From Planctomycetota bacterium (GTDB lineage Bacteria; Planctomycetota; JAJSAM01; JAJVHW01): a stretch of DNA of 64,000 nucleotides. Made by a program: the position numbers and the translations under genes. The stretch spans positions 12,358-76,357 of the forward strand of contig JAJVHW010000063.1 in assembly GCA_022072415.1 (NCBI GenBank). Reading direction: 5' to 3'. The notes beneath the pieces are model-generated. The model worked only from the letters and a program-made list of their open reading frames with translations, searched no databases and was not told the DNA's origin. Of this stretch, positions 40,679 through 56,765 are shown piece after piece (position 1 is the first letter of the stretch; each line of letters opens with the position of its first letter).

Positions 40679-43600
40679 ATGAGCAAGGACCCCGCGAGGC
40701 AGATCGCCGAGAGCGCGCGGACGTTCACGGACCCGGCGGAGCGGGCGGCGTATCTCGACCGTGTGTGCCGCGGGATCGCGCGGCTGCGGGCGGACGTGGA
40801 GCGGCATCTGGCGGAGATGGACGCCGGGGGCGGGGGCGCGGCGGAGCCCGGGCCGGAACCGCCGGCGGACGAGCCGGTCGTCGCTCGACCCGCCGCGCCG
40901 CCCGTGACCGCGTCCGAGTCCGACACGACGGACAGCGCCCGCGACAGCGCGGCGGTCGACGTCGGCAACGAGAAGGCGGGGGACCGGATCGGGCGGTTCC
41001 TGCTCGTGAAGGAACTCGGCGAGGGCGGGTTCGGCACGGTGTGGAAGGCCGAGCAGGTGGAGCCGGTGAAGCGCACGGTGGCGCTGAAGATCATCAAGCT
41101 CGGGATGGACACCGAGCAGGTGGTCGCGCGCTTCGAGCAGGAGCGGCAGGCGCTCGCGCTGATGGACCACCCCAACGTGGCCCGCGTGATCGACGCGGGG
41201 GCGACGCGGACGGGGCGGCCGTACTTCGTGATGGACCTCGTCCAGGGCGTGCCGATCGGCGAGTTCTGCGATGCGGAGCGGCTGACCGTCGAGGCGCGGC
41301 TCGAGGTGTTCGCGCAAGTGTGCGCGGCGGTGCAGCACGCGCACATGAAGGGGATCATCCACCGCGATCTGAAGCCGTCGAACGTGCTCGTCACGAAGCG
41401 CGACGGGAAGCCGCACGCGACGGTGATCGACTTCGGCATCGCGAAGGCGACGTCGTCGAAGCTGACCGACAGGTCGCTCGTGACGGAGGCCTACCAGGTC
41501 ATCGGGACGCTCCAGTACATGAGCCCCGAGCAGTCGCAGGCGTCGCCGGACATCGACACGCGGACCGACGTGTACTCGCTCGGGATCATCCTCTACGAAC
41601 TGCTCACGGGGACGACGCCGTACGACACGGACACGTTCCAGCGGGCCGTGCTGTCGGACATCCTGCGGATGATCGGCGACGTCGATGCGCCTCCGCCGTC
41701 GGCGAAGATCACGGAGTCGCGCGATGCGCTGCCGTCGCTCGCGGACTCGCGGAGCATCGACGTGAAGCGCCTCGCGTCGTCGCTCCGCGGCGAGCTCGAC
41801 TGGATCGTGCTGAAGTCGATCGAGAAGGACCGCGCGCGGCGATACGAGTCGGCCGAAGCGTTCGCGGCGGACATCCGGCGGTACCTGGCGGGCGAGGAGG
41901 TGAGCGCGGCGCCGCCGAGCGCCACGTACAGGCTGCGGAAGTTCGTGCGGCGGAACAAGGGGCCCGTGGCGGCGGCGGCGGCGGTCGCGGCGGCGCTCGT
42001 GGCGGGGATCGTCGGCTTCGCGTGGCAGGCGGGAGTGGCGAAGCACGAGCGCGACGAGGCGGTGAAGGCGAGGAAGGCGGAGGAGGCGGAACGCAAGCGG
42101 GCGCAGGCGGTCGCCGACTTCATGGACTCGACCTTCAAGGGGCTCGACCCGAGCGCGGACGACGCGACGTCCGGGTCGCTCAAGGAACGGCTCGTCGCGC
42201 GGCTCGAGCAGATGTCCGGCGAGTTCTCGAAGCTCGACGCCGATCCGCTCGCCCGCGCGCGGATCGAGGAGACGTTCGGGAGCACGATGGCGGGGCTCGG
42301 CGCCGTCGAGAAGGCGGCTGCGGCGTACGAGGGCGCGCTCGCCATCCGAAGGCGCGTCCTCGGCGAGGAGGCGAACGAAACCGAGCAGACCGCGCTCTCG
42401 CTGGCGTTCATGCTTCGTCACGCGGGCCGGTTCGACGACGCGATGCAGCTCGTCACGGGCGTCCGCGACCGGCGTCTCGCGCGGGGGCCGCTCACCGACG
42501 ACCAGTGGATCGAGATCGACGAGGCGCTCGGCGTGATCCATGGATCCGCCGGACGCGCCGCGGACGCGACGCCGCACGTCGAGGCCGTCGTCCGGCGGCG
42601 CCAGGCGAAGGGCGGACCGGACACGGAGGAACTCCTCCTCGCGCTGCACAATCTCGGCGTCAACTACCGCGAGACCGGGAAGGTGGAAGACGCAGTCCGC
42701 GTGCTCGCCGACGCGCACGCCCGGCGGATCGCGCTCGGCGGCGAGGCGTCGGCGAACACCCTGCTCACCGCCAACAGCCTGGCCGTGGCGCTCGCGGCCG
42801 CCGGGAGGAGAGACGAATCGGCGAAGCTCTCGGAGTCCGTGCGCGACCGCGTCGCGCGGCGGTACCCGCCGGAGCATCCGCTCGCGCTCCACGCGAACTG
42901 CAACTACGCCGCGAGCCTCGTTGCGCTCGGCCGCGTCGACGACGCGGTCAAGCTCGTCGAGGAGCAGGTCGCGCGCGCGACGGCTCGCCACGGCTCCGAG
43001 GCGTCGGTGACGGTGCAGGTGCGGTGGGCGCTCGTCACCGTGTACGCGGAGGCGAAGCGCACGAAGGACGCGCTCGCGATCCTCGAGGAAATCGTTCCTC
43101 AGATGACGCGGGTCTGGGGCGCGGATCACGAGACCGTGCAGCGGGCGCGCGACGGTCTGCTGCGGTACAGCGTCGAGCACGGGCGCGACGAGCGGGCCCG
43201 CGCGATCCTCGAGTCGGAACTCGCGCGGCTCTCGGCCGACCCCGGGTCCGGCGGCGCGGACGGGAAGTCGGCCGTCCGGATCCGCGCGGAGCTCGCGCGG
43301 AACCTCGTCTACACGGGGAAGCCCGACGAGGCGTTGCGGAAGCTGACCGAGATGGCGCCGATCGTCGAGTCGGTCCTCGGACCGAAGGACTCGGCCTACT
43401 CGGCGGTCCTCCACGACATCGGTTGGGTCCACTTCACGGCGGAGCGGCCGAAGGAGGCGATCGAGGCGCTCGACCGCGCGTGGAAGGCGGCCGTCGCGGC
43501 CGCCGGGCCCGACTCCGAGGCCGCGATCCGGTCCCATCACGCGCTCGGCTCCGCGCACTGGCTCGCGCAGGACTTCCCGAAGGCGGTCGCGATCCTGTCC

Positions 43601-44653
43601 GAAGCGCTCGAGCGCGCCGCGCGCGGGCTCGGGAAGGACCACGAGGAGACGCTCCTGACTTCGCTCGACCTCGGAGTGAACCTGCTCATGACCGAGCGGA
43701 AGGAGGAGTTCCTCGCGCTCATGTCGGAGTGGCTGCCCCGCGCGTGGAGGGTCCTCGGGCACGGGAACGAGATGGTCGTGCAGGTGACCGACGCCTTCGG
43801 CGCCGCGAGCGCGGAGGCCGATCGGCACGCCGATGCCGCGGCCGCCATGGAGTTCCTCGCCGCGGCGACCGCCGCCCAGCTCGGACCCGACGCACCCGAC
43901 GCGCTCCGCCTCGGCGGGAACGCGGCTACGAGCTGGTGGAAGGCCGGGCGGCTCGACAAGTCGCTCCCCATGTTCGAGAGCCTGGTGCCGCGGTTCCGCA
44001 GGGAGCTGGGCGAGTCGTCGCCCGAGTTCCTGATGGCGCTCGCGAATCTCGGCGTGAACCTCCGCGACGCGAAGCGGGCCGAGGAGTCGCTCGCGGCGTT
44101 CGAAGAGGCGACGCGGCTGGCGAAGGCCGCAGGCCCGGAGGCGGCGAGCGTGGTGTCGTTCGCGACGGGCGAGTACGCGCGGACGCTCGTCCGGCTCGGC
44201 CGGAAGGACGAGGCGGTCGCGCTCATGCAGGACGTCGTCGCGGGCGTGCGGAAGCGCGCGCCTGCGGGCGGATTGGCCCTGTCGAACGAGTTCGGCGCCG
44301 TGGCGCCCGTCCTGATCGACGCCGAGATGTGGGAGGTCGCGGAGCCCGTCCTCCGCGAGATGGTCGCGATCCGCGAGAAGCTGGCGCCCGGGCTCTGGAA
44401 CCACTGGAACGCGCGGGCGCTGCTCGGCGAGGCGCTGATGGGGCAGAAGCGGTGGGCCGAGGCGGAGCCCTTCGTCGTCTCCGGTTACGAGGGGCTCGCC
44501 GCGCGCGAGAACGCGATCCCCGGCGCCGCCGCGCACTGGCTCCCCGCGGCGCGGGAGCGCGTCCTCCGGTTCTACGCCGCGTGGGACGCAGCCGAGCCCG
44601 GGAAGGGGCACGACGTGAAGCTCGCGGAGTGGAAGGCGAAGCTCGGGAAGTGA
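40679..44653 (+). CDS. Ser/Thr protein kinase with a TM segment and a very long TPR region
   Basis: Kinase motifs GEGGFGTVWKA, VALKIIK, HRDLKPSNVLV, DFGIAK, GTLQYMSPEQ. A TM segment (PVAAAAAVAAALVAGIVGFAW) is followed by ~850 aa of TPR-like repeats. GGGAGG lies 6 nt upstream of the ATG. Confidence 0.9.
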   Translation: MSKDPARQIAESARTFTDPAERAAYLDRVCRGIARLRADVERHLAEMDAGGGGAAEPGPEPPADEPVVARPAAPPVTASESDTTDSARDSAAVDVGNEKAGDRIGRFLLVKELGEGGFGTVWKAEQVEPVKRTVALKIIKLGMDTEQVVARFEQERQALALMDHPNVARVIDAGATRTGRPYFVMDLVQGVPIGEFCDAERLTVEARLEVFAQVCAAVQHAHMKGIIHRDLKPSNVLVTKRDGKPHATVIDFGIAKATSSKLTDRSLVTEAYQVIGTLQYMSPEQSQASPDIDTRTDVYSLGIILYELLTGTTPYDTDTFQRAVLSDILRMIGDVDAPPPSAKITESRDALPSLADSRSIDVKRLASSLRGELDWIVLKSIEKDRARRYESAEAFAADIRRYLAGEEVSAAPPSATYRLRKFVRRNKGPVAAAAAVAAALVAGIVGFAWQAGVAKHERDEAVKARKAEEAERKRAQAVADFMDSTFKGLDPSADDATSGSLKERLVARLEQMSGEFSKLDADPLARARIEETFGSTMAGLGAVEKAAAAYEGALAIRRRVLGEEANETEQTALSLAFMLRHAGRFDDAMQLVTGVRDRRLARGPLTDDQWIEIDEALGVIHGSAGRAADATPHVEAVVRRRQAKGGPDTEELLLALHNLGVNYRETGKVEDAVRVLADAHARRIALGGEASANTLLTANSLAVALAAAGRRDESAKLSESVRDRVARRYPPEHPLALHANCNYAASLVALGRVDDAVKLVEEQVARATARHGSEASVTVQVRWALVTVYAEAKRTKDALAILEEIVPQMTRVWGADHETVQRARDGLLRYSVEHGRDERARAILESELARLSADPGSGGADGKSAVRIRAELARNLVYTGKPDEALRKLTEMAPIVESVLGPKDSAYSAVLHDIGWVHFTAERPKEAIEALDRAWKAAVAAAGPDSEAAIRSHHALGSAHWLAQDFPKAVAILSEALERAARGLGKDHEETLLTSLDLGVNLLMTERKEEFLALMSEWLPRAWRVLGHGNEMVVQVTDAFGAASAEADRHADAAAAMEFLAAATAAQLGPDAPDALRLGGNAATSWWKAGRLDKSLPMFESLVPRFRRELGESSPEFLMALANLGVNLRDAKRAEESLAAFEEATRLAKAAGPEAASVVSFATGEYARTLVRLGRKDEAVALMQDVVAGVRKRAPAGGLALSNEFGAVAPVLIDAEMWEVAEPVLREMVAIREKLAPGLWNHWNARALLGEALMGQKRWAEAEPFVVSGYEGLAARENAIPGAAAHWLPAARERVLRFYAAWDAAEPGKGHDVKLAEWKAKLGK

Positions 44654-44714
44654 CGGCGCGGCCGGACTGCTGTTGACTCCGCCGCCGCCGCAGGCGGACC
44701 ATGGGCCCATCGCA

Positions 44715-44738
44715 TCCGCGCGGGGGGGCCCGCGCGGA
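44715..44738 (+). terminator. Perfect 10-bp GC hairpin (tccgcgcggg-gggg-cccgcgcgga). Either a terminator of the kinase gene or a 5'-UTR structure of the next gene.
   Basis: Read directly. It lies 62 nt after the kinase stop and ends 2 nt before the GGAAGGGAG Shine-Dalgarno sequence of the TrpB2 gene. No U-tract follows. Confidence 0.4.
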
Positions 44739-44754
44739 GCGGAAGGGAGCCGAC

Positions 44755-46125
44755 ATGGCCGCGCGGAACAACTTCATGCTCGACGAGAGCCGGGTGCCGA
44801 AGGCCTGGTACAACATCAACGCCGACATGCCCGTCGCGCGCGAGCCGGTGCTCCACCCGGGCACCATGAAGCCGGTGACGCCGGACTTCCTGAGCGTGAT
44901 GTTCCCCATGAGCATCCTGCAGCAGGAGATGTCGGCCGAGCGCTGGGTCGAGATCCCCGAGCCCGTGCGCGAGGCGTACCGCCTCTGGCGCCCGACGCCG
45001 CTGATCCGCGCGGTGCGCCTCGAGAAGGCGCTCGACACGCCGGCGCACATCTACTTCAAGTACGAGGGCGTGTCGCCCGTCGGGTCGCACAAGCCGAACA
45101 CCGCGGTCGCGCAGGTCTTCTTCAACAAGGAGGCCGGGTCGAAGGCGCTCGTCACCGAGACCGGCGCCGGCCAGTGGGGCTCCGCCATGGCGATGGCGTG
45201 CGCCTTCTACGACATGCCGTGCGAGATCTTCATGGTGAAGTGCAGCTTCGACCAGAAGCCGTACCGGCGCATGATCATCGAGAACTACGGAGCGACCGTG
45301 TACTCGAGCCCGACCGTCCGCACGTACGCCGGCCGCGCCGAACGCGAGCGGAATCCGGACTCGGACGGCGTGCTCGGGCTCGCGATCTCCGAGGCGATGG
45401 AGACCGTGGCCACGAGCGGCGGCCTGAAGAAGTACGCGCCGGGCTCGTGCCTCAACTACGTGCTGATGCACCAGACGGTGATCGGCATCGAGGCGCTCGA
45501 GCAGATGGAGATGGCCGGCGAGTACCCGGACATGGTGATCGGCTGCGCCGGAGGCGGGTCGAGCTTCGGCGGGATCGCGTACCCGTTCGTCCACCGCAAC
45601 CTGACGCAGGGGAAGAAGACGCGGATCATCGCGGTCGAGCCCGCGTCGTGCCCGTCGATGACGAAGGGCCGCTACGCCTTCGACTACGCCGACCTCGCGT
45701 GCAGCGGGCCCATCGTGAAGATGCACACGCTCGGGCACTCGTTCATCCCGCCGGGCATCCACGCGGGCGGGATGCGCTACCACGGCATGGCGCCGAGCGT
45801 CAGCGCGCTCGTCCACAACGGGGACATCGAGGCGCGGGCGGTCGGGGAGCTCGAGACGTTCGCCGCGGCGGTGCAGTTCGCGCGGACGCAGGGGATCATC
45901 CCGGCGCCGGAGAGCGCGCACGCGATCCGCGTGGCGATCGACGAGGCGCTCGAGTGCAAGCGGCGCGGGGAGAAGAAGGTGATCGTCTTCAACCTGACGG
46001 GCCACGGGCACTTCGACATGGAAGCGTACGACGACTACCACAACGGGCGGATCCACGAGACGGAGCTGTCGGACACGGACCTCCAGGCCGCGCTGGCGCA
46101 GTTGCCGCTCGTGCCGTCGGAGTAG
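44755..46125 (+). CDS. TrpB2-type tryptophan-synthase-beta-like PLP enzyme
   Basis: IYFKYEGVSPVGSHKPN (PLP lysine), TETGAGQWGSAMA, GCAGGGSSFGG. Length and N-terminus (NFMLDESRVPKAWYN) are typical of TrpB2. The start is at the second ATG, which has an SD. No trpA lies nearby. Confidence 0.9.
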   Translation: MAARNNFMLDESRVPKAWYNINADMPVAREPVLHPGTMKPVTPDFLSVMFPMSILQQEMSAERWVEIPEPVREAYRLWRPTPLIRAVRLEKALDTPAHIYFKYEGVSPVGSHKPNTAVAQVFFNKEAGSKALVTETGAGQWGSAMAMACAFYDMPCEIFMVKCSFDQKPYRRMIIENYGATVYSSPTVRTYAGRAERERNPDSDGVLGLAISEAMETVATSGGLKKYAPGSCLNYVLMHQTVIGIEALEQMEMAGEYPDMVIGCAGGGSSFGGIAYPFVHRNLTQGKKTRIIAVEPASCPSMTKGRYAFDYADLACSGPIVKMHTLGHSFIPPGIHAGGMRYHGMAPSVSALVHNGDIEARAVGELETFAAAVQFARTQGIIPAPESAHAIRVAIDEALECKRRGEKKVIVFNLTGHGHFDMEAYDDYHNGRIHETELSDTDLQAALAQLPLVPSE

Positions 46126-46189: not shown

Positions 46190-46654
46190 CTACTTCTTCT
46201 TCTTCGCCGGCTTCTTCGCCGCGGGCTTCTTCGTCGGCGTGTACTTCGGCGGCGTGATGTTGTTCCAGATGTCGCGGTAGACCTTCCACTCGCCGGTCGG
46301 CTGGCGGCGGTAGACGAGGATCCCCTTGCAGTTCCAGTGGATCGTCTTGCCCTTGCCGCTGCGCGGGATGTCCGTCGCGATGTCGTGCCCCTCGTCGAAG
46401 CCCCACTCGCCGCAGACGTGGTTCGCCTTGATGATCTTCGTCCAGTGGGTCTTGTACTCGGCGAAGTAGCCCGCGACGGCGGCGCGGAGCTGCTTCCAGC
46501 CCACGGTCTGCGGCGCGTCCGGCGGCATCTGCGCGGCCTCCGGGTCGTACATCGCCATCACGAGGTCGGTGTCGTTCGAGTTGATCGCCGCCTCGTACGC
46601 CTTGTGGGCGGCTTCGAGGCCGGGATCGAGGACCGGCTTCATCTTCTTCGCCAT
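46190..46654 (-). CDS. NTF2-like (SnoaL/DUF4440-type) protein with a Lys-rich C-terminal tail
   Basis: AINSNDTDLVMAMYDPEAAQMPPD ... GKTIHWNCKGILVYRRQPTGEWKVYRDIWN follows the NTF2-like pattern. The tail is PPKYTPTKKPAAKKPAKKKK. GGAGGG lies 7 nt upstream of the ATG. Confidence 0.65.
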   Translation of the reverse strand: MAKKMKPVLDPGLEAAHKAYEAAINSNDTDLVMAMYDPEAAQMPPDAPQTVGWKQLRAAVAGYFAEYKTHWTKIIKANHVCGEWGFDEGHDIATDIPRSGKGKTIHWNCKGILVYRRQPTGEWKVYRDIWNNITPPKYTPTKKPAAKKPAKKKK

Positions 46655-46724: not shown

Positions 46725-49700
46725 TCAGAGAGACGCGAGAAGCGACCGCGCCTCGGTCACGTCCTTCGTCCCCGCGCCCTCGGTGAACCACGCGCACACC
46801 GGCTCGAGCACCTCGCGGGCGCCCGCCGCGTCGCCGCGGTCCCGGAGCAGCTCCGCGAGCGTCGTGGCGGCGCGGAGCTCCCAGGACTTCGTCCCGTGCC
46901 GCCGCGCGGTGTCCACGGCCGCGCGGAGCTGCGCCTCGCCCTCGGCCGTCCGCCCCTGCCGCGAGAGCACCCAGCCCTTCAGCCGCAGGATCTCCGGGAG
47001 CCAGATCCGTTCCTGGTACGCCGGGCGCTCGATCTGCTCGAGGCACTCCTCGATGAGCCCCGCCGCGCCCGCGAGGTCGCCCTGCATGGCCGTCGCCTGC
47101 GCGAGCGCCGACTTCAGGAAGGGGACGCGCACGCGTCCGCCGACGCCCGTCCACGCGTCGATCGTGCGGCGCAGGTCCGCCGCCGCTTCGCGGACGCGCC
47201 CGGAGTGGAGCTTCTCGAACGCCGCGAGCTGCGGGATCGACACCTGGTACATGAAGGCGATGCCCTGGTCGCGCGCCATGCGGTCGAGGTCCTCGACGCG
47301 CTTGCGCAGCGGCTCCGCCTCGCGGCGGTACGCCCATGCGTAGGACCCGAACGTGAGCGACCAGACGAGGTTGAACGCGTGGCCGACCTTCCGCGCGTGC
47401 GCCTCCGCGCCGCGGCTGACCTCGAGCGCCGTGTCGGGGCGGCCCTCCATCCAGATCCACTGGTGCGAGTACACCTCGACGAAGTTCCGGAGGTCGTGGC
47501 CCGTGAGCCGGATCCACCGCTCGGCGCGCGACGCGTCGTAGAGCGAGAGCACGCGGTCGGCGTGCGCGCGCGCCTTCGGGAGGTCGGCGAGGAAGAAGTT
47601 CGACACCATCGCGGCCGCGGGGCCGAACAGGCGGAGGTCCGGATCGTCGGCCGCGGCGCACGCGGCGAGGAGCTCGTCCGCGTAGGGCTGCGAGTCGGCG
47701 ATGCGGCCCTGCGTGATCGTGTTGGTCCACATCCACCAGAGCCCGAGGATGTGCTGCTGCGCGTTGCCGCGTCCGCGGGCGAGCCGCAGGATCGCCTCGG
47801 TGTTGACGCCGATCTCCTGCGCCGCCCAACCGCGGAGCCCCGCGTGCGCCGCGTTGAGCTGCTCGCGGATCGAGAGCTCGAGCGCGTCGCGGTCGCCCGA
47901 GGGGGGCACCTGGCCGATCAGGCGGAGCGCCGCCGAGAGGTGGGCCACCGCTTCCTGCAGCGCGACGCGCGCGATCGCGAGGGTTCCCGCCTGCCGCCAG
48001 AGCGGGATCGCCGAGTCCACGTTCCCGGCCTGCGTGTGGTGGTGCGCGACGCGTTCGGGGCGCCCGGTGACCTGCGCCGCGAACGTCGTCTCGAGCGCGT
48101 GGGCGAGCTGCGCGTGGAGCTGCTGGCGGCGGCTCTTCAGGAGGAGGTCGTAGGCCGCGTCCTGCACCAGCGCGTGCTTGAAGGTGTAGACGGCGTCCGG
48201 CGCCTCGCCGCGGCGGGTGATGAGACCGGACTCGAGGAGCCGCGCGAGCCCCGCGTCGAGGTCGCCGCCGCGGAAGGACGACACCGCGGCGAGGAGGTCG
48301 TGCGGGAACTCGCGGCCGATGCACGCGCCGAGCTGCGCGATCTCCTTCACCGCGCCGAGGCGGTCGAGGCGGGCGGCGAGCGAGTCCTTGAGCGACGTGG
48401 GCACGGCCAGCGTCGGGAGCGGCGCGTCGAGCGTCCACCGCCCGTCCTTCAGCGAGAGGAGGCCCGACTCGAGCACGGACTTCGTGAGCTCCTCGACGAA
48501 GAGCGGCACGCCGTCGGTGTGCGACACGATGTGCGCGAGCACCTCGGGCGGCAGTTCGCGCCCGCCGGTCACGCCGGCCACGATCGCGGCGACGCTTCCC
48601 CTCTCGAGGCGCGAGAGCCCGATCGTGCTCACGTGCGACTGTCCGCTCCACGGGACCGCGTACTCGGGGCGGTGCGTCGCGAGCACCATCACCGGAAGGT
48701 CCCGGATGCGCGGCACGAGCGCGTCGAGGAGCTCCTGGCTCGTCGGGTCGAGCCAGTGGAGGTCCTCGAAGACGACGAGGACGGGTTCCGTGCGCGCGCG
48801 GCCGACGACCTGCGCGGCGAGCGCCTCGAGCGTGCGCTCCTTCCGCTTCTGCGGCGGGAGCTGGATCGGCGGATACCCGTCCGTCGGGAGCGAGAGGAGC
48901 GCGGCGAGGAACGGCGCCGCCGCGGCGACCTGGGCCGGAGTCCCGACGAGCGACGCCTCGAGCTTCGCGAGCCGCTGCGCGGGGGTGTCGTCGCGCGCGA
49001 AACCGGCCGCCGTCTCGCACTGCTCGACGAACGGGTAGAGCGCCGAGTGCAGGTGGTAGGGCGAGCACTGGTAGCGGAGCTCCGCGTGCGGCTCGACGAT
49101 ACGCTCGCGGAGCCCGTGGGACAGGCGCGACTTCCCGATCCCGGCCTCGCCGCCGACGCAGACGACCTGGCCCTCGCCGTCCTTCGCGCGGCGCCAGCGG
49201 TCGTGGAGGAGCGTGATCTCCTCCTCGCGGCCGATCATGCCTGCAAGGTCGCCTCCGGCCTGCGCCGCGTCGAACCGTCCGCCGGTGCGGCGGACTCCGT
49301 CCACGCGGAAGACGGACACCGGATCCGCGAACCCCTTCAGGCGGTGCTCGCCGAGGTCGGACAGCGCGAACGCGTTGCGGACGAGGCGCCGCGTGGAGGG
49401 GCCGATCACGACCTCGTCGGTCCCGGCGAGCGCCTGGAGCCGTGCGGCGAGGTTCGGCGCCTCGCCGACCGCGAGACGCGCCTCCGTGGTCCCGCCTTCG
49501 GACGCGTCGCCCACGACGACGGCGCCGGTGGCGAGCCCGATCCGCACCGCGAGCGGCCGTGCCGCGCGGATCGTCTTCACCGCCTGCACCATCTCGAGCG
49601 CCGCGCGCACGCCGCGCTCGGCGTTGTCCTCGTGCGCCGCCGGCCAGCCGAAGTAGACCATCAGCCCGTCGCCGAGGTACTGCGCGACGTGCCCGTCGTA

Positions 49701-50096
49701 GCGCGTCACCACGTCGCCGCAGGCCTTGCGGTACTTCTGGATCAGGTCGCGGAGCTCCTCGGGGTCGAGTTCCGCCGCGAGCGCGGTGGAACCGACGAGG
49801 TCGCAGAACATCACGGTGAGCTGGCGGCGCTCGCCGACGGGCTGCACCGCGGCGGTGTCCGGCGCGGACGGCGCGGCGGGGGCCGCCGACTTCGGAGCGC
49901 GGAGCGCCTCGATCGCGACCGCGAGGCGGCGGCGGGGGCCGATCGGAAGCCCGAGGCGGTCGAGGTCCGCGTCGGTCAGGTGCGGGAGGTCCTCGAGCGT
50001 GATCTCGTTGTCCGCGAACACGGCGGCGTGCTTCTCGAGCCCCGCCTTCTGCAGCCACGCGGCCAGTCTGCCGTCGCCGTCGCCACCGTCGCTCAC
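46725..50096 (-). CDS. SAM (sterile alpha motif) domain / class III adenylate-guanylate cyclase / AAA-STAND ATPase / TPR multidomain protein
   Basis: SAM-like N-terminus: LAAWLQKAGLEKHAAVFADNEITLEDLPHLTDADLDRLGLPIGPRRRL. Cyclase: RRQLTVMFCDLVGST, GDGLMVYFG, RIGLATGAVVVGD, GEAPNLAARLQ. P-loop GEAGIGKS. Long TPR-like C-terminus. The GTG start overlaps the upstream stop (GTGA at 50093..50096). Confidence 0.9.
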   Translation of the reverse strand: MSDGGDGDGRLAAWLQKAGLEKHAAVFADNEITLEDLPHLTDADLDRLGLPIGPRRRLAVAIEALRAPKSAAPAAPSAPDTAAVQPVGERRQLTVMFCDLVGSTALAAELDPEELRDLIQKYRKACGDVVTRYDGHVAQYLGDGLMVYFGWPAAHEDNAERGVRAALEMVQAVKTIRAARPLAVRIGLATGAVVVGDASEGGTTEARLAVGEAPNLAARLQALAGTDEVVIGPSTRRLVRNAFALSDLGEHRLKGFADPVSVFRVDGVRRTGGRFDAAQAGGDLAGMIGREEEITLLHDRWRRAKDGEGQVVCVGGEAGIGKSRLSHGLRERIVEPHAELRYQCSPYHLHSALYPFVEQCETAAGFARDDTPAQRLAKLEASLVGTPAQVAAAAPFLAALLSLPTDGYPPIQLPPQKRKERTLEALAAQVVGRARTEPVLVVFEDLHWLDPTSQELLDALVPRIRDLPVMVLATHRPEYAVPWSGQSHVSTIGLSRLERGSVAAIVAGVTGGRELPPEVLAHIVSHTDGVPLFVEELTKSVLESGLLSLKDGRWTLDAPLPTLAVPTSLKDSLAARLDRLGAVKEIAQLGACIGREFPHDLLAAVSSFRGGDLDAGLARLLESGLITRRGEAPDAVYTFKHALVQDAAYDLLLKSRRQQLHAQLAHALETTFAAQVTGRPERVAHHHTQAGNVDSAIPLWRQAGTLAIARVALQEAVAHLSAALRLIGQVPPSGDRDALELSIREQLNAAHAGLRGWAAQEIGVNTEAILRLARGRGNAQQHILGLWWMWTNTITQGRIADSQPYADELLAACAAADDPDLRLFGPAAAMVSNFFLADLPKARAHADRVLSLYDASRAERWIRLTGHDLRNFVEVYSHQWIWMEGRPDTALEVSRGAEAHARKVGHAFNLVWSLTFGSYAWAYRREAEPLRKRVEDLDRMARDQGIAFMYQVSIPQLAAFEKLHSGRVREAAADLRRTIDAWTGVGGRVRVPFLKSALAQATAMQGDLAGAAGLIEECLEQIERPAYQERIWLPEILRLKGWVLSRQGRTAEGEAQLRAAVDTARRHGTKSWELRAATTLAELLRDRGDAAGAREVLEPVCAWFTEGAGTKDVTEARSLLASL

Positions 50097-51535
50097 GGGC
50101 CGAGCCTAGCCGAGGCGGCGGTCGCGGCGCTTCGATTCGCGCCGGCCACGAGGAGTCCGCGTCCGGCGAGCCACTCGACGAGCGCGAACGCCGCGCGCGA
50201 AGGCATCCGCGACGCCCACTGCTGCGCGAGGGCGAGGGGCGCGGCGTCGCCCCGGACGGAGCGGAGGAGCGGCGCGAGCTCGTGGCCCGCGAGGAACGCG
50301 ACCGGCTCGTCGAGCGCGGGATGCGAGACGGCGGCGCGCGAGGAGACGAAGTCGGCGTCGAGGCAGGGGATCTCGGGGAACGAGCACTCGGAGGAGACGG
50401 CGAGTTCGGCGTGCGACGACCAGTCGACCGGAACGCGATGCGGCTCTTCGAGCGGAGCCGTCGCGGCGCGCGCCGTCCAGAACGGACCCGTCCGGCCCGC
50501 CGCGGCATAGTGCGATCCGGCCCACGCCGCGTGACGGTCGTACGCCGAGAGCAGCGCGCTCCGATGGAACGACTCCGCGAGACCGGAGCGCTCCGGGCGG
50601 CGAAGGAGCGTGTTCACGACGACCGCGCCGGACACCGCGGACTGGATCGCCCGCTGCACGCCGCTCGAGGCGAGCGGGTCGAGGGCGAGCGCGGCGTCGC
50701 CCACGCGGATGTGGTGCGTCGAGACCGGATCGCCGGCGAGCCGCGGCGTCGCGTCGGACGCGCGCACCGGACCGTCCTGCACGAGACCTTCGCAGCCTTC
50801 GAAGAGGCGCGAACCGCTCATCAGCGCGCGGAAGCGGTCCTCGGGCGACGTTCCGCGCGGCGCGGCGTCCCTGTCGGCGAAGACGAGCGTGTTGTAGGTG
50901 CCGTCGGGGATCGGCACGCCCCAGCGCCAGCCGTGCTCTGCCGCCTCGATGCGCGGCGCGTCGGGAAGCCGCGCTCCGCGCCAGTACGCGAAGAGCGCGA
51001 CGGTGGGGGCGCCCTCGCGGAGCGGCGCGACGGACGTCGGCGACGACCGCCCGCCCGCGAACGCGACGAAGCGCGCGGAGATTTCGGTGCGACCGCCGGC
51101 ATGGTCCGCGGCGACGCGCCATCCGCAGTCGGCTCGCGTCGGGGCCGGGGCCGGGGCCCTCGCCGCCGCCGGCTGGAGCACGCGCACTCCGCACGACCGC
51201 GCATGGTCGAGCAGCAGGGCGTCGAACCGCCCGCGGTCGACGAGGAGGCCGCCGTCGCCCGACGGCGCGTCGCGGCGGACGGGAGACGACGTCCACTCGA
51301 CGTCCACGCGCGGCGCGGCCGGGAACCCGGCGGCCTCGACCGCGGCGCGGGCGCCCGATGCCTCGAGGAGCGGGAGCACTCCGGGCGTGAGCGACTCGCC
51401 GACGTGGCGGCGCGGAAAGCCGTCGCGCTCGACGAGGCACACGTCGTGCCCGAGCTGCGCGAGGCGCGCCGCGAGCGTGGCGCCCGCGGGGCCGCCGCCG
51501 ATCACCACGACGTCTGCGCGGACTTCCTCCGTCAT
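50093..51535 (-). CDS. FAD-dependent oxidoreductase of the LodB / flavin-halogenase-like class with a C-terminal PqqD-like extension
   Basis: Start at MTEEVRAD (ATG ending at 51535). Dinucleotide fold VVVIGGGPAGATLAARLAQLGHDVCLVE. GWRWGVPIP (WxWxIP-like) and GDAALALDPLASSGV. The last ~110 aa (…VAFLAGHELAPLLRSV…ALVEWLAGRGLLV) resemble a PqqD/RRE winged helix. Confidence 0.75.
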   Translation of the reverse strand: MTEEVRADVVVIGGGPAGATLAARLAQLGHDVCLVERDGFPRRHVGESLTPGVLPLLEASGARAAVEAAGFPAAPRVDVEWTSSPVRRDAPSGDGGLLVDRGRFDALLLDHARSCGVRVLQPAAARAPAPAPTRADCGWRVAADHAGGRTEISARFVAFAGGRSSPTSVAPLREGAPTVALFAYWRGARLPDAPRIEAAEHGWRWGVPIPDGTYNTLVFADRDAAPRGTSPEDRFRALMSGSRLFEGCEGLVQDGPVRASDATPRLAGDPVSTHHIRVGDAALALDPLASSGVQRAIQSAVSGAVVVNTLLRRPERSGLAESFHRSALLSAYDRHAAWAGSHYAAAGRTGPFWTARAATAPLEEPHRVPVDWSSHAELAVSSECSFPEIPCLDADFVSSRAAVSHPALDEPVAFLAGHELAPLLRSVRGDAAPLALAQQWASRMPSRAAFALVEWLAGRGLLVAGANRSAATAASARLGP

Positions 51536-51542
51536 CGGCGGC

Positions 51543-52922
51543 TCAGCCCGTCCCGATGCGCTCCGCCGCCGGCGCCGCCTCCTCGAACCGGCGGCGCGGC
51601 AGCCGCAGGTAGACCTCGAGGCAGTGGTGGAGCCAGCCGCGGATGTAGTCGCACGCGGGGCGCCCGCGACGGATCGCCTCGTGGTGGCAGCCGCCGCCGC
51701 ACATGTAGCGCGCCCAGCAGCTCGCGCACGGCTCCTGGCGGTGGACGTGGCGGTCGGTGAGCCACGCGATCTGGCGGCCGCGGTCCACGCCGCCCGCGAC
51801 GCTTCCCATCGCGCCGCCCGAGTCGCCGACGAACCGGTGGCACGCCGACAGCTCTCCGTCGGCCGACACGCCGAGGTACCCCGCCCCCGCGCCGCATGGA
51901 TACGGCCGGTGCGTGCCCTTCTCGATCTCGCGGAGCGCATTGACGAGGTTCGCGAACGGGAAGCGCTCGCCGCGGGCGGTGCGCCGCTCGTACTCGCGGC
52001 CGCATCCGATCATCTCGCCGAGCATCGTCTCGAGGTCGGCCGCCTGCATCTCGCCGTTCCCGCCGGAGGACGCGAGCATCGGCGAGAACCCGACGCTGTA
52101 GAATCCCTCCGCGACGAACTCGCGGAGCGTCTCGCGCAGACCGAGGTTCCGCGGCGTGACGGTGACGCGCGCCGAGACCTGCATCTTCCGCTGCCGCGCG
52201 AGGAGCGGCCGCACGTTCGCGAGGATCCGGTCGTAGCTCCCGCGCCCCCGGCGGTCGGGGCGGAGCAGGTCGTGGACCGCCCGCGGACCGTCGAGGCTGA
52301 CCGTCACGGCGAACCCGTGCTCCTCGAAGAAGTCGCCGTCGTCCGCGGTGAGCAGCGTGCCGTTCGTGGTGATCGAGAACGAGACGTTCACGCCGCGCCG
52401 CTCTCCCAGCTCCTTCGCGTGGAGCGTCGCCGCGCGGAGCACGTCGCGCGCGACGAGCGGCTCGCCGCCGAGGAACGCGAGCGTGGTCCGCGCGCCGGGC
52501 TCCGCGCGGCCGACGAGCATCTCGACCGAGCGGAGCGCCGTCTCGACCGGCATGCTCTTCGCCGGGCCGCCGAAGTCGCCCTGCTGCGCGTAGCAGTAGC
52601 CGCAGCCGAGGTTGCACTTCTGCGCGACGGCGAGCGAGAGCGCGTGGACCGGCGGCGGGTCGAGCGGCGTGTCGTCGATCCGCGGCGGGCCCGCGAGCCC
52701 GGCGGCGGCGAGCACGGCGCCGATCTCCTCGCCCGTCGTCGCGGCGCGGAGCCGCGCGACGAGCGCCGGGTCCGCGTCGAAGAGCTGCGAGCCGTCGGCC
52801 GCGAGGAGGCTCCACCCGGACGCCGCGCGGAGAAGGTGGAAGCGCGGGTCCCGCGGGGCCGACGCCTCCATGCACCTGCGCGCCTCGGCGCGGAGGTCCT
52901 CCTCCTGCGCGGCCGCCGTCAC
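51543..52922 (-). CDS. Radical SAM / SPASM-domain enzyme
   Basis: CNLGCGYCY (Cys codons at 52614..52616, 52602..52604 and 52593..52595), GGEPL, SITTNGTLL. The C-terminal Cys-rich SPASM region is YPCGAG...CHRF...CASCWARYMCGGGCHHE. I take the GTG at 52922, which overlaps the upstream stop (GTGA) and has GAGG upstream. An alternative ATG lies at 52871. Confidence 0.85.
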   Translation of the reverse strand: MTAAAQEEDLRAEARRCMEASAPRDPRFHLLRAASGWSLLAADGSQLFDADPALVARLRAATTGEEIGAVLAAAGLAGPPRIDDTPLDPPPVHALSLAVAQKCNLGCGYCYAQQGDFGGPAKSMPVETALRSVEMLVGRAEPGARTTLAFLGGEPLVARDVLRAATLHAKELGERRGVNVSFSITTNGTLLTADDGDFFEEHGFAVTVSLDGPRAVHDLLRPDRRGRGSYDRILANVRPLLARQRKMQVSARVTVTPRNLGLRETLREFVAEGFYSVGFSPMLASSGGNGEMQAADLETMLGEMIGCGREYERRTARGERFPFANLVNALREIEKGTHRPYPCGAGAGYLGVSADGELSACHRFVGDSGGAMGSVAGGVDRGRQIAWLTDRHVHRQEPCASCWARYMCGGGCHHEAIRRGRPACDYIRGWLHHCLEVYLRLPRRRFEEAAPAAERIGTG

Positions 52923-55222
52923 TTCGCCTCGCCGGGCGCGTCGCGTCCGCGGAGCTGCACGCGGAGCCACTTCTCCCAGTCGTGGAAGAGCCGGTCGTAG
53001 TCCACGAGCCGCGCGTCCATGTAGTCGTCCGGCACGTACTTGCCCGACCGCTCGATCTGCATCCAGTTGTCGCCGGTGCTGCGGCCTTCGCGCGTGACCT
53101 CGACGTTCACGAAGTCGGGCCGCGCCGACGCCCAGTAGTAGCAGGAGCACTCGCGGTAGTCGTTCTGCCACGGCGAGCAGAGCCCCTGCGTGAGCTCTCC
53201 CGGCTGCGCGAGCGCGCGCGAGATCACGACCGTGCCCGGCTCGAAGAACGGTCGCACGGTCAGCTCGACGCTGATGCTCGTCTTCTCGTTCCAGGGAGTC
53301 GGGACGTACCACTCCTCGGCGGCGCTGAAGTCGCAGACGACCTTCTTGCCGACGCTCTTCCAGAGCAGGTGCGCGAGCGCGTTCGACCACTCGAGTGGCG
53401 CGAGCCCGTGCGGGTTCCCCTCGTAGGGGACGGTCGCGGAGTCGTCCGGATCGAGCGTGTTCGGGCCGCGCATCACCGCGGTCGTGGGGATCCCCCCGAT
53501 CCGCTGCAGGCGGTGGCGGTGGAGACGCTTCAGCGCCGGGCGGTCGGACTCGACGTCCACCACCAGGCTGTCGTACTCGCGGAGCACGAGCCCCTCGAGC
53601 ATCCGGCGCCAGACCGCGCGGAAGTCCACTTCGAGCCCCGGGCAGCAGTTGGAGATCGACGTCTCGATCCGGGAGCTGACGGGGTTCCCCGCGGCGGCGT
53701 AGTGGAGCTGCGCGCTGCGGTTCCGCGGCGTGAGCGCGGGGGCGGCGGGCGCCTTCGGCTCCGCGGACGAGGTCGGATCGATCGGCCCCTCGAAGGGCTG
53801 CGCCCGCGCGGCCTTGCCGATCGTGTCGATCATGCGGTAGGTGAGCGCGAGATAGTTGTTGTCGCCGCCGATCATGAGCGCCGGCATCTTGCGGCGCCCG
53901 GCGTCGGTGTAGTCGGCCGCCTCCTCGGGCCGCCGGAGCAGCCGTGCGAACCACGGCGCGGCGCCGCTCCGGAGCGCCGTGTAGACCTGCTGGTGGAGCG
54001 CGAGCACCGCCGCCGTGTCGGCCGTCTCCGGCGACATGATGGGCCGGCCGGGCCGCTGCGTGTCGGCCGCCTCCTCGTAGGGCATCGTGTCGAACAGCAG
54101 CGCGGGGCGGCCGTCCACGTCGTTCCCGTTCATGACCTCGACGTTGAGGAAGCGCACGGTCTCGAACGCGCGGCGGACGATGTCCTCGGCGCGCGCGCGC
54201 GTGACCTCGGGCGGTTCGTCGGCGGGCACCTCGGGGCCGAAGAGGACCTGGTCGAGGTCGTCGGCGAGCGTCCGCACGAAGAGCGAATCGGGGATCACCA
54301 TGGGCGGACCCGACGTGACGCGCGCCGCCGCGGAGAGCCCCTTTCCGCGCAGCCGCACCTCGACGATCCCGTCGCACGTGTCGTCGAGGAACCCGCGGCT
54401 CTTCGCCGCGTTGCCGTAGAGCCACGGCGGCGCCGGCGGGACGATCGCGAAGAGCGACGGGGGAAGCGTGTCGTTCCAGTACTCGCGCGGCTTGCCGGGG
54501 AACTCGTCGCTGTCGATGGCCGGCGGGACCTCGAAGCCGGGCCAATTGCCCTTGCCGTAGACGCGGAGTTCCGGCGGCGGGACGTACTGCCCCGGATCGT
54601 CGAACTCGACGGGCTTCTTCGGACCGTAGATGAGCCCCGTCGCGGGCGTGAAGCGGAGGCGCAGCCCGGGGAAGCGCTCGTTCGGGCGGATGAACCGCAC
54701 GCTGCCGAAGCCGACCTTGCCGTCCTTCACGAAGTGCGGGCAATGCCCGTCGAGCGCGACCGGATCGTGGTGGCGGAACCAGCCCGTCTTCGCGGTGACG
54801 GTGTCCTCCTCGTCTCCCGTGCGGCGCGCGACCTTGCGGTTGGCGACGTGGACGCTCCACTCGACGTCCGCGAGAGACAGCCCGTTCTCGTCGAGCAGAT
54901 CCTCCGTGAGCGGGACCAGATCGCCGTCCGGCTGCGAACCCGCCGCCGGATCGAGGACCGCGAACACCTCGAGGAACGGCGCCACGCGGCGGAACTTCCC
55001 GTCGTCCTTGAACGCGATCTCCGCGGGCACGAACGACTCGCGGATCTCGCCGGTCGCGTCGTCCACGACGAGCGTCTCCGCGGGGACGATCCGGCGGAAC
55101 CCGGTCGGGTCCGCGGGGTCGTCCTCGAGCGTGTAGTTGTCCATCATCCGGGGCGACGAGCCCTGCCGCCCGATCGCCAGAGGCGGGAGGATGCGGAGTT
55201 CGCGGATCCTGCGGGCCTTCAT
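52919..55222 (-). CDS. LodA-like protein (homologue of cysteine-tryptophylquinone L-lysine epsilon-oxidase / glycine oxidase GoxA family)
   Basis: Start MKARRIRELRILPPLAIGRQGSS (compare LodA HPSIGVARLGN). VEWSVHVANRKVA (compare IEWTVHLANKKAA). FLDDTCDGIVEV (compare WYDDISDGSVTC). ISNCCPGLEVDF (compare IGNCVGLPMCPGIEMTW). LCSPWQNDYRECSCYYWASARPD (compare ACPWQADFFNC...YWWPPQSP). The comparison uses the Marinomonas LodA sequence as I remember it. ATGA overlap with the upstream gene. Confidence 0.75.
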   Translation of the reverse strand: MKARRIRELRILPPLAIGRQGSSPRMMDNYTLEDDPADPTGFRRIVPAETLVVDDATGEIRESFVPAEIAFKDDGKFRRVAPFLEVFAVLDPAAGSQPDGDLVPLTEDLLDENGLSLADVEWSVHVANRKVARRTGDEEDTVTAKTGWFRHHDPVALDGHCPHFVKDGKVGFGSVRFIRPNERFPGLRLRFTPATGLIYGPKKPVEFDDPGQYVPPPELRVYGKGNWPGFEVPPAIDSDEFPGKPREYWNDTLPPSLFAIVPPAPPWLYGNAAKSRGFLDDTCDGIVEVRLRGKGLSAAARVTSGPPMVIPDSLFVRTLADDLDQVLFGPEVPADEPPEVTRARAEDIVRRAFETVRFLNVEVMNGNDVDGRPALLFDTMPYEEAADTQRPGRPIMSPETADTAAVLALHQQVYTALRSGAAPWFARLLRRPEEAADYTDAGRRKMPALMIGGDNNYLALTYRMIDTIGKAARAQPFEGPIDPTSSAEPKAPAAPALTPRNRSAQLHYAAAGNPVSSRIETSISNCCPGLEVDFRAVWRRMLEGLVLREYDSLVVDVESDRPALKRLHRHRLQRIGGIPTTAVMRGPNTLDPDDSATVPYEGNPHGLAPLEWSNALAHLLWKSVGKKVVCDFSAAEEWYVPTPWNEKTSISVELTVRPFFEPGTVVISRALAQPGELTQGLCSPWQNDYRECSCYYWASARPDFVNVEVTREGRSTGDNWMQIERSGKYVPDDYMDARLVDYDRLFHDWEKWLRVQLRGRDAPGEAK

Positions 55223-56673
55223 CGGCGCACCCCCTCGCGGCCGGCTCCGAGGCCGGCGAGCACACGGTCGATCCACTCGATCCCCTGCGAGTCCACGGCC
55301 TGCATCACGGTCAGCGCGCGCGCCGAGTCCGGGGCGCGGTCGGCGCGGAGGAGGTCGGCGCAGAGGGACGTCGATTCGCGGAGCAGCTCGCGGTGGAACA
55401 CCCAGCAGTCGGCGTCCGACTCGGGCAGCACGAGCGTGTACGGCATCTCGAACGGCGGCCCCGCGCGCCGCGGATCCGCGCGGTCCGCCGTGAGCGGCGA
55501 ACGCACGAGGATCCCCGCGCACGTCTTCATGTTGTACATCTCGCCGAAGATGCGGTGGAGCACCATGCCGCGCAGCCGCCGCGACGCGGCGCCCGAGTCG
55601 CCGCCGGAGAGGCGGAACCAGAACGTCATCCACATGAGCGCCATGCGGTAGCGCAGGTTGAAGAGCTGCGCCCACGAGCGCGAGGTCTCGGACTCGATCC
55701 ACGAGTGGCGAGGCGACCGGCGCAGGTCCGGGTTCGCGGTGGGGTTCGCGGCCACGTCGCGCGCGTACGCCCACGGCTTCCGCGCCGCGTCGCGCGCCTC
55801 GATGCCGCGCCAGATCTCGGCGAAGCGGTCGAAGTGCGAGGGCTCGTCGCCGGAGTCGACGTTCGCCGCGGCGAGATGGGGCGCCTCGCCCTGCGCGGCG
55901 ATCTGGCGGAGCCCCGCGAGCGCGTCGGTGCGGGTCGCCATCTGCGCCACCACCACGGTCGCCTTGCGATCCTCCATGGCCACCGCGTCGCGGCCGTACG
56001 GCCGGCGGAGCTTCGGATCGAGGGAGGGATTCGCCAGCGTCGCCGCGGTCTCGGGCATGTACCCCTTGCCCCACTCGGCGAACGAGGCCTGCGCGCCGTA
56101 CGTTCCCGCGCGGAACGTCTCGTCGGGGATCCGCGACTCGTCGCCCACCAGTTCGATCAGCTTCTCGTAGAGCGTGCCGACGTGGTGGACGCGGCCCGCC
56201 GACTCCGGGACCTTCAGGCGCCGCACCACCGCGTTCGCCACCCGCACGTCCTCGGCCGAGGCGTCGGACGGCATCTCCGGGGGCATCTCCGCGTAGACGT
56301 AGCGCGTGATGGTCTCCATGTCGAGCGCGCGGAGCTGGAACGGGAACGGGAAGTAGTCCGTGTCGAACGGGATGTTGCGCCGGTTGAAGCAGACGGGTCC
56401 GCCGACGAGCGTGAGGAGATTCTGCACGCTGACGAGGTGCCCCATCTCCTCGCGGGCGATCGTGAGCAGCATGTCCTGCCACCGCCGGACCTCGTGCCGC
56501 TTCGCGGCCGGGACCTGGTCGCCGCCCAGCGAGTACGCCGCGAAGAGGTACTGGACGAGCTGCGCGTGCTCGATCTCGGCGCCGATGCCGAGGAGCATGC
56601 AGAGATAGTCGCGCCACGACATGCCCGGCGCCCTGTCCGGATGGGACGAGGGCTTGACTGCGGATCGTTTCAC
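55219..56673 (-). CDS. Ferritin-like domain protein (Pfam Ferritin-like family, the VioB/RebD-type domain)
   Basis: GAEIEHAQLVQYLFAAYSL ... LTIAREEMGHLVSVQNLLTLVGGP ... FPFPFQLRAL ... RYVYAEMP matches the two-helix E..H / EE..H signature of this family. GTG start at 56673, alternative ATG at 56622. Confidence 0.7.
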   Translation of the reverse strand: MKRSAVKPSSHPDRAPGMSWRDYLCMLLGIGAEIEHAQLVQYLFAAYSLGGDQVPAAKRHEVRRWQDMLLTIAREEMGHLVSVQNLLTLVGGPVCFNRRNIPFDTDYFPFPFQLRALDMETITRYVYAEMPPEMPSDASAEDVRVANAVVRRLKVPESAGRVHHVGTLYEKLIELVGDESRIPDETFRAGTYGAQASFAEWGKGYMPETAATLANPSLDPKLRRPYGRDAVAMEDRKATVVVAQMATRTDALAGLRQIAAQGEAPHLAAANVDSGDEPSHFDRFAEIWRGIEARDAARKPWAYARDVAANPTANPDLRRSPRHSWIESETSRSWAQLFNLRYRMALMWMTFWFRLSGGDSGAASRRLRGMVLHRIFGEMYNMKTCAGILVRSPLTADRADPRRAGPPFEMPYTLVLPESDADCWVFHRELLRESTSLCADLLRADRAPDSARALTVMQAVDSQGIEWIDRVLAGLGAGREGVRR

Positions 56674-56765
56674 GTGATGGCCCTCCCGGCCGCATCGAGG
56701 CAGAACCGCGAGTCTACGCAGGTCGCAGCGCCCGTTTCAAAGGGCGTTCCCAGTATCATCCGCGC

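Follow-up and report, generated by a model that had tools for sequence, protein, structure and literature searches.

What does a ferritin-like protein do when its gene is read together with that of an oxidase homologue? The question is raised by a stretch of 64,000 nucleotides, here called the window, from a Planctomycetota bacterium (GenBank assembly GCA_022072415.1, contig JAJVHW010000063.1, positions 12,358 to 76,357 of the forward strand; all positions below are those of the window). Gene A, which codes for a member of the Pfam family Ferritin-like (PF12902), overlaps gene B, which codes for a remote relative of LodA and GoxA, and both are followed on the same strand by genes C to F (Table 1). 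A, B, C and D, often together with E, form a widely conserved and previously undescribed bacterial cassette of four to six genes headed by A. On the strength of sequence conservation, structure models and analogy to characterized enzymes we propose, with moderate confidence, that A is a ferritin-like, probably di-metal subunit of a previously undescribed quinoprotein of the cysteine tryptophylquinone (CTQ) type, which the A-B-C-D(-E) cassette would build.

Gene A, its partner and their conservation

A hidden Markov model search places gene A in PF12902 with 96.5 bits against a cutoff of 22.3 (E value 2.7e-27, model positions 4-219 of 221), the family that an initial annotation had named from the sequence alone, and both helices quoted there, EIEHAQLVQYLFAAYSL and AREEMGHLVSVQNLL, are present in the translation. 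No second family was found on gene A in Pfam at E values up to 1. The AlphaFold2 (AF2) model is helical with long helix pairs and reaches a predicted local distance difference test score (pLDDT) of 83.5. In a Foldseek search its top PDB match is 3hl1 (E value 8e-3, template modelling (TM) score 0.58 on the target), followed by ferritins, Dps and bacterioferritins, each with a probability of 1.00. This best structural match is CC_0557 of Caulobacter vibrioides, a structural-genomics 'ferritin-like protein' of 289 aa with function unassigned and without a detectable sequence match to A or the A profile in the PDB search. Single-sequence searches of the PDB with A and with B gave no matches, among them no ferritin for A at E values up to 1, and the sole match of the A profile was a marginal bacterioferritin. 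Gene A is, by family assignment and modelled structure, a PF12902 member with a four-helix-bundle ferritin fold, to which long insertions and a large conserved, family-specific C-terminal half are added.

The reading frame of gene A has a G+C content at third codon positions (GC3) of 0.95, in a window of 73% G+C. A GGGAGGG sequence stands 8 nt 5' of the GTG at 56673, and the closest database copy (P0001, 99% identical) is annotated from the internal ATG at 56622 with 467 aa, so that the start of gene A is placed at either 56673 or 56622. A minus-strand open reading frame at 56670..59459, whose stop overlaps the GTG of gene A as GTGA, was rejected as spurious (wrong GC3, translation rich in R, E and P), and gene A therefore opens the operon. 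The long frame 52919..56695 runs out of phase over the gene A stretch and is likewise spurious there by GC3. More than 1000 full-length homologues of gene A with 40-54% identity were found in the database search, all of them unnamed or labelled 'ferritin-like'; when the library was reduced to clusters of 50% identity, 312 of these matched at E values up to 1e-30 and 2054 at up to 1e-3. Many homologues carry a short basic extension, M-R-x-R-x-x-R-H-L, before the conserved N-terminal K-P-x-x-M-x-W-R-D-Y-L, which the copy in the window lacks, and one (P0387) has an N-terminal extension of about 450 residues before the A-type part. Neither A nor B matched a defence system in PADLOC.

The stop codon of gene A (TGA, 55221..55219) and the start codon of gene B (ATG, 55222..55220) share the sequence ATGA. 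The translational coupling described in the initial annotation can thus be read directly from the sequence, and it recurs elsewhere: of 73 loci, 44 have a 4-nt overlap of stop and start, 55 have an overlap of any length, and in 68 the two codons lie no more than 30 nt apart. A metagenome-assembled Planctomycetes genome codes for a 'hypothetical protein' with the same sequence as B (100% identity), and RefSeq labels B-type proteins as 'hypothetical'. Its matches to the LodA and GoxA models stay below every threshold (Pfam LodA_N 19.0 bits against 26.3, LodA_C 20.6 against 25; NCBIfam LodA 14.4 against 600). The predicted structure of B, on the other hand, finds LodA (3weu, 3wev and 2ymw) at E values between 6.5e-10 and 1.6e-8, whereas the next match has an E value of 0.6; LodA is the only clear match among solved structures, and B clearly has the LodA fold as far as the model is concerned. 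A profile of the B family recovers GoxA and LodA in four colinear patches, and the sequences common to them include the N-terminal I-x-P-x-I-G-x-x-G, DDxCDG and, at the cofactor, PWQxD-x3-C. The description of the partner as a LodA-like oxidase is therefore borne out by the predicted fold, but in sequence B is a remote relative.

How regularly A and B occur together was determined from a genome scan with one genome per species, from which the 80 best loci were taken further; the counts per locus include only loci with enough downstream sequence. A relative of A occurs in at least 434 of the 185,579 species scanned. The 80 best loci belong to Gemmatimonadota, Acidobacteriota, Verrucomicrobiota, Actinomycetota, Myxococcota, Bacteroidota, Pseudomonadota (Alpha- and Gammaproteobacteria) and others, with Streptomyces, Saccharothrix, Kitasatospora, Sorangium, Cystobacter and Pedobacter among the genera. 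In 70 of 71 loci the characteristic motif of B (see below) follows downstream of A at a distance of no more than 3.5 kb. Downstream of A and B, gene C follows in 63 of 66 loci, D in 60 of 66 and E in 43 of 62, and the same gene order is seen on metagenome contigs of Vicinamibacterales and Methylobacteriaceae. Across phyla B is 57-62% identical and thus better conserved than A. Co-occurrence with LodA-like genes, which the initial annotation could only ask for, is near-obligate beyond this locus and extends to gene fusions.

Among plasmids, 13 records contain a close homologue of B. A canonical A lies directly upstream in nine of these, and no match to A was found at an E value of 1e-5 in the other four. 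Three of the four, one from Rhizobium leguminosarum and two from Bradyrhizobium barranii, code instead for a protein of 909-915 aa that ends in PF12902 (174.5 bits in R. leguminosarum), in divergent orientation beside split LodA-like, radical S-adenosylmethionine (radical-SAM) and QhpG-like genes; for B. barranii this comes from the reading of one plasmid of the two. The fourth record is from Mesorhizobium sp. AR10. More divergent PF12902 proteins beside split LodA-like, radical-SAM and QhpG-like genes were found on plasmids of Rhizobium, Bradyrhizobium and Mycetohabitans. On rhizobial plasmids (L087:3317-6046, L090:3703-6450) PF12902 is part of a fusion protein that also contains a BNR/Ycf48-like propeller and a FlgD Ig-like domain.

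In several lineages the ferritin-like domain and B are parts of one polypeptide. In P0334 (1011 aa) and P0374 (1032 aa) a single protein consists of A followed by residues 6-474 of B (E values 6.5e-83 and 1.3e-78); 3' of each lie genes for a motif protein of 257-268 aa, then for a radical-SAM and then for a flavin adenine dinucleotide (FAD) protein. Both were kept because they are independent sequences and because P0374 comes from a chromosome-sized record of 10.8 Mb (CP036432.1). A third apparent A-B fusion, P0283, was discarded because its garbled tail makes an artefact by frameshift likely. In Nostoc sp. UHCC 0302 one protein joins PF12902 (136.6 bits) to the middle of B (residues 252-468, E value 9e-13), and a second, encoded after the radical-SAM gene, joins the C-terminal part of B including CSPWQYDFRDCGCFYWAASKPD (E value 7e-18) to another PF12902 domain. 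Two separate proteins make up B in Mycetohabitans, in actinomycetes and in rhizobia: the N-terminal one has about 480-570 aa, and the C-terminal one, of about 260-300 aa, bears the motif. Some variant cassettes hold further oxidative enzymes, namely a DyP-type peroxidase in Nostoc (L089:12477-14009), a tyrosinase in Rhizobium (L087:12334-13815) and a protein with a vanadium-chloroperoxidase-like domain in CP036432.1 (L092:5231-6979).

Nothing argues more strongly for A and B acting as one enzyme than the occurrence of fusions in several lineages, which points to A as a stably associated subunit instead of a free enzyme of a downstream pathway. The fusions also bear on another explanation, in which A would be a common ferritin or Dps for iron storage, or would be unrelated to B and stand beside it by a coincidence of a compact genome. 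The fold of A does resemble those of ferritins and bacterioferritins, but its length of 467-484 aa, its long insertions and its family-specific C-terminal half are at odds with such a protein, as is the failure of any PDB ferritin to match in sequence at an E value of 1 or below; since A adjoins B in all but one of 71 loci, which come from many phyla, and is fused to it in some, coincidence and iron storage can be regarded as effectively refuted already.

The cofactor-site motif and the putative maturation genes

Two features escaped the initial annotation: the operon continues with a QhpD-like and a QhpG-like gene, and the oxidase homologue carries a Cys/Asp/Trp motif like that of QhpC. The motif, CSPWQNDYRECSCYYWASARPD, is the most conserved stretch of B and reads C682-S-P-W-Q-N-D688-Y-R-E-C692-S-C694-Y-Y-W697-A-S-A-R-P-D703, with C682, D688, C692, C694, W697 and D703 invariant among 29 homologues of B. 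Its 22 residues recur in 70 loci with S/A and Y/F changes only; the window has a single copy, and none was found on the opposite strand. D688 and C692 align to D678 and C682 of GoxA, the catalytic Asp and the CTQ Cys, and to the D-x3-C of LodA in the patch PWQADFFNC.

The mature core of QhpC, taken from a Paracoccus plasmid, reads C27-QPMEA-D33-LYG-C37-ADP-C41-W-W43-PAQVA-D49. In this protein C37 and W43 form the CTQ, a thioether joins C41 to D49, and the Asp of the active site is D33 (PMC7876137). When the two motifs are written as C-x5-D-x3-C-x-C-x2-W-x5-D for B and C27-x5-D33-x3-C37-x3-C41-x-W43-x5-D49 for QhpC, the spacings C-x5-D, D-x3-C and W-x5-D are equal, whereas the C-C-W part differs (x1 and x2 in B, x3 and x1 in QhpC). 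C27 and D33 of QhpC presumably form a second thioether in the structures of quinohemoprotein amine dehydrogenase (QHNDH).

The GTG start of gene C at 52922 overlaps the stop of gene B as GTGA. Its product shares 37.7% identity with QhpD of Paracoccus, and QhpD, which as a maturase introduces the Cys-to-Asp/Glu thioethers of QHNDH, is also its best NCBIfam model. Gene D exceeds the cutoff of the QhpG model (NF049967, 305.9 bits against 240) and scores only 96.9 bits with LodB and 88.8 bits with GoxB. In terms of sequence, B has a QhpC-like Cys/Asp/Trp layout within a LodA fold and stands beside two genes that resemble those of the QhpC maturases. The alignments of A contain no invariant Cys and those of B six, which makes B the likely target of the radical-SAM protein.

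Possible roles of the ferritin-like protein

Residues of gene A are numbered from Met18. In an alignment of A-type proteins with the PF12902 domains of Nostoc, Rhizobium and Bradyrhizobium, which are about 20% identical to A, the residues E18, E59-x-x-H62, E112, E246 (in QGE), H263, R266, F267 and Y325 are conserved in all forms, and the helix-A Glu and the helix-B ExxH of a bacterioferritin-like PDB entry align with E18 and E59xxH62. A di-iron or di-manganese carboxylate site is usually built from four Glu and two His. The conservation of this set in A suggests a putative di-metal site, around which the six residues would cluster.

Ferritin-like di-metal proteins include peroxidases and catalases, and a role in which A, like rubrerythrin or Mn-catalase, destroys the H2O2 of a cytoplasmic LodA-type oxidase has to be weighed at this point. 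LodA and GoxA release H2O2 (PMC4417212), and the N-termini of A and B show no obvious signal peptide by eye, no predictor having been run. Such a role appears quite improbable to us, as A gave no sub-threshold match to rubrerythrin or Mn-catalase in Pfam at E values up to 1 and its conservation spans the large family-specific C-terminal half.

The reading that we prefer, A as subunit of a CTQ-type quinoprotein, would operate as follows. The QhpD-like product of C would install Cys-to-Asp thioether braces in B, probably C682-D688 and C694-D703, and the QhpG-like product of D would hydroxylate W697; cross-linking of C692 to W697 would then give the cysteine tryptophylquinone. A would be made in step with B and bind to the N-terminal two-thirds of it, and the carboxylate/His metal site of A would serve as redox partner of the quinone and pass electrons from the reduced cofactor to O2, which is the role we favour. 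A may in addition act as the source of oxidant when cofactor formation is completed. A comparable job is done in related systems by the di-haem proteins QhpA and MauG (PMC7876137, PMC11951088). No match to QhpA, QhpB, QhpC or QhpE was found in the window by tblastn with the Paracoccus proteins, and there is therefore no haem partner on hand.

From the same facts it could be argued that A acts in maturation only, as a di-metal oxidase which, like MauG for tryptophan tryptophylquinone (TTQ), finishes the Cys-Trp cross-link and the conversion of quinol to quinone and takes no part in turnover. The product of QhpG is a dihydroxy-Trp and not a quinone, the finishing step of QHNDH needs more factors (PMC7876137), and a review table lists QhpG together with QhpA for it (PMC11951088); the cassette is devoid of a haem protein, and A has a putative O2-activating site. 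We nevertheless regard this role as unlikely: permanent fusions of ferritin-like domain and B in several lineages fit a stoichiometric subunit better than a transient maturase, and LodA and GoxA mature without such a factor.

The initial annotation had filed A as a protein of VioB/RebD type, noting that the same domain occurs in VioB, RebD and StaD. The filing does not hold. The model for these proteins, TIGR04492 (iminophenyl-pyruvate dimer synthase), gives 20.1 bits against an equivalog cutoff of 1250, A has 484 aa against about 1000 aa, and the ferritin-like domain alone is in common; residues 59-95 of A match model positions 660-696 and nothing more. The domain link is weakly borne out, inasmuch as the local match over these 37 residues has an E value of 1.1e-4 and 3hl1, the top structural match of the A model, has been reported as the best template for VioB in SWISS-MODEL (PMC9705886), although A is not a member of the VioB family. 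As a pattern, the pairing of an amino-acid oxidase with a PF12902 protein is real: in VioA/B, RebO/D and StaO/D the imines made by the oxidase are coupled by an accompanying enzyme that contains PF12902 (PMC10851217). VioB, RebD and StaD thus resemble A in the Pfam domain, the best template and the presence of an amino-acid oxidase partner. They are, unlike A, multi-domain haem enzymes of about 1000 aa that synthesize chromopyrrolic acid or the IPA-imine dimer, their partner is a flavin-dependent Trp oxidase where B is a presumed quinoprotein, and their systems are without radical-SAM or QhpG-type maturases.

By this precedent A could capture an imine or aldehyde released by B and couple or convert it, and the operon would make a metabolite instead of H2O2. 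The shared PF12902 domain, the local match to VioB and the common template agree with such a role; tight coupling and fusions would suit the channelling of an unstable product, and the tyrosinase, DyP-type peroxidase and vanadium-chloroperoxidase-like protein of variant clusters would find a place in it. We judge it rather unlikely all the same, since A stands outside the VioB family with about half the length and 37 matching residues, chromopyrrolic-acid synthases are described as haem enzymes (PMC10851217) whereas A shows a carboxylate/His pattern, and the conserved gene order includes no further biosynthetic or tailoring genes.

Several observations weigh against the quinoprotein-subunit assignment that we prefer. 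The top NCBIfam match of gene C, TIGR03906 for QhpD, scores 303.8 bits and thereby falls short of the equivalog cutoff of 453. Sorangium sp. So ce1000 (L046, 10001-11317) has a homologue of A (41% identical) without B, C or D nearby and is the sole exception among the 71 loci. H19 and E260, which belong to apparent ExxH pairs of A, are not universal. The AF2 confidence of B is lowest at its most conserved segment, where residues 680-742 (53014-53182) have pLDDT values below 50 (27-34), as might be expected if the shape of this loop depends on crosslinks; the poor model leaves the partner of C692 ambiguous between W697, the candidate by analogy to QhpC, and W720. Finally, the fusions show association and not the chemistry of A, and they fit product-handling, peroxide-handling and structural roles equally well.

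Neighbouring genes and comparison with known systems

Table 1. Positions in the window of genes A to F, of the overlap between A and B and of the cofactor-site motif.
Feature	Position	Strand	Basis	Remarks
Gene A, ferritin-like (PF12902)	55219..56673	minus	open reading frame and translation, GC3, Pfam	484 aa (GTG 56673) or 467 aa (ATG 56622)
ATGA stop/start overlap of A and B	55219..55222	minus	direct sequence reading	
Gene B, remote LodA/GoxA-fold protein, presumed quinoprotein	52919..55222	minus	translation, Foldseek, profile search	767 aa
Cofactor-site motif of B (C682..D703)	53114..53179	minus	homologue alignment, locus scan	
Gene C, radical SAM/SPASM, QhpD-like	51543..52922	minus	Pfam Radical_SAM, NCBIfam	start GTG 52922 or ATG 52871
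Gene D, FAD monooxygenase, QhpG-like (LodB/GoxB relative)	50093..51535	minus	NCBIfam; Pfam Trp_halogenase, FAD_binding_3	
Gene E, SAM domain - class III nucleotide cyclase - AAA_16 - TPR	46725..50096	minus	Pfam	1123 aa; GTG overlaps D stop
Gene F, SnoaL/NTF2-like	46190..46654	minus	Pfam SnoaL_2	154 aa

The domain architecture of gene E suggests a dedicated regulator of the cassette, of STAND type or acting through cyclic nucleotide monophosphates (cNMP). Against the NCBIfam model of a TOMM system kinase/cyclase fusion it scores 531.7 bits, which is below the cutoff. In one locus (L001) genes for a metallophosphoesterase and a cNMP-binding kinase lie between D and E. PADLOC reported viperin for C and Pycsar for E; both matches were rejected as generic radical-SAM and cyclase homology. 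Gene F accompanies a subtype of E that is at least 54% identical (L001, L013, L015, L019, L024 and others). One A homologue (P0266) has 147 extra N-terminal residues before the A-type part, with a resemblance to NTF2/SnoaL-like proteins that was noted by eye only.

Upstream of gene A a divergent gene (56819-60035, plus strand, 1072 aa) has a GC3 of 0.96 and no match in Pfam, NCBIfam or PADLOC, and it is not kept beside the cassette in other loci. Just beyond the other end of the cassette, on the plus strand, lie genes for a pyridoxal-phosphate-dependent enzyme of 474 aa (Pfam PALP, 44701-46125) and for a protein of 1324 aa (40679-44653), which by eye only resembles a Ser/Thr kinase with TPR-like repeats. 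Nothing was seen that would assign either of them to the cassette.

Should the preferred reading be correct, both maturation routes of CTQ would be joined in one system, together with a metal protein absent from either. A new class of enzymes with a protein-derived cofactor would be present in the at least 434 of 185,579 species genomes mentioned above, cultured strains included, and the relation of the QhpC core to the cofactor loop of LodA and GoxA would be revealed. The large uncharacterized family PF12902 would gain its first functional context, and a lead would be given on the function of the ferritin-like part in VioB, RebD and StaD. The frequent link to a cyclase or STAND-type regulator, along with a substrate of B that is not assigned, hints at an unrecognized physiological role.

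A more far-reaching version, which we put forward as a tentative and on balance doubtful suggestion, sees here a fourth class of tryptophylquinone enzyme. LodA fold, QhpD-braced CTQ, QhpG-type hydroxylase and di-iron ferritin-like subunit would be united in one 'quino-di-iron' complex, in which the LodA-fold protein is sometimes divided and a cofactor subunit of about 260 aa is set apart, amine oxidation would be wired to an O2-activating metal site, and PF12902 would be a general partner module of amine and amino-acid oxidases. The presence of this domain in VioB, RebD and StaD and beside fungal lodA-like genes would thereby be explained.

A search of the literature found no description of the bacterial cassette, and the sole earlier record of the pairing that was found is a fungal one. 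Campillo-Brocal et al. reported in 2015 that in fungal 'group V' lodA-like clusters a PF12902 gene stands beside lodA-like and lodB-like genes (PMC4417212). This record is a passing remark on five fungal genes for which no function was proposed, and it leaves bacteria, radical-SAM and QhpG-like genes, a QhpC-like motif and fusions unmentioned. A review of 2025 recognizes three CTQ enzymes, QHNDH, LodA and GoxA, with two separate maturation routes (PMC11951088).

With LodA and GoxA the cassette shares the predicted LodA fold of B, three sequence patches and a downstream gene for a flavoprotein related to LodB and GoxB. It departs from them in that B stays below every model threshold, D is closer to QhpG than to LodB, and radical-SAM and ferritin-like genes are obligate additions. 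Near the cofactor Cys, B has further invariant Cys and Asp; it often consists of two polypeptides, and its candidate Trp is 5 residues away from that Cys, as compared with 15 in GoxA and 65 in LodA.

The likeness to QHNDH (QhpA, QhpB and QhpC with QhpD, QhpE, QhpF and QhpG) lies in gene C, for which QhpD is the best model, in gene D, which passes the QhpG cutoff, and in the motif, which parallels the thioether-braced CTQ core; in the split variants a protein of its own, of about 260 aa, bears the motif in the manner of a gamma subunit. The cassette differs in being without the di-haem protein QhpA, the beta-propeller protein QhpB, the protease QhpE, a dedicated exporter and the 28-residue leader. 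Its motif is embedded in a LodA-fold protein of 767 aa, the system appears by eye to be cytoplasmic, and the place of the expected redox partner is occupied by a ferritin-like protein. Taken as a whole, the cassette looks like a hybrid of LodA/GoxA and QHNDH with an added metal subunit.

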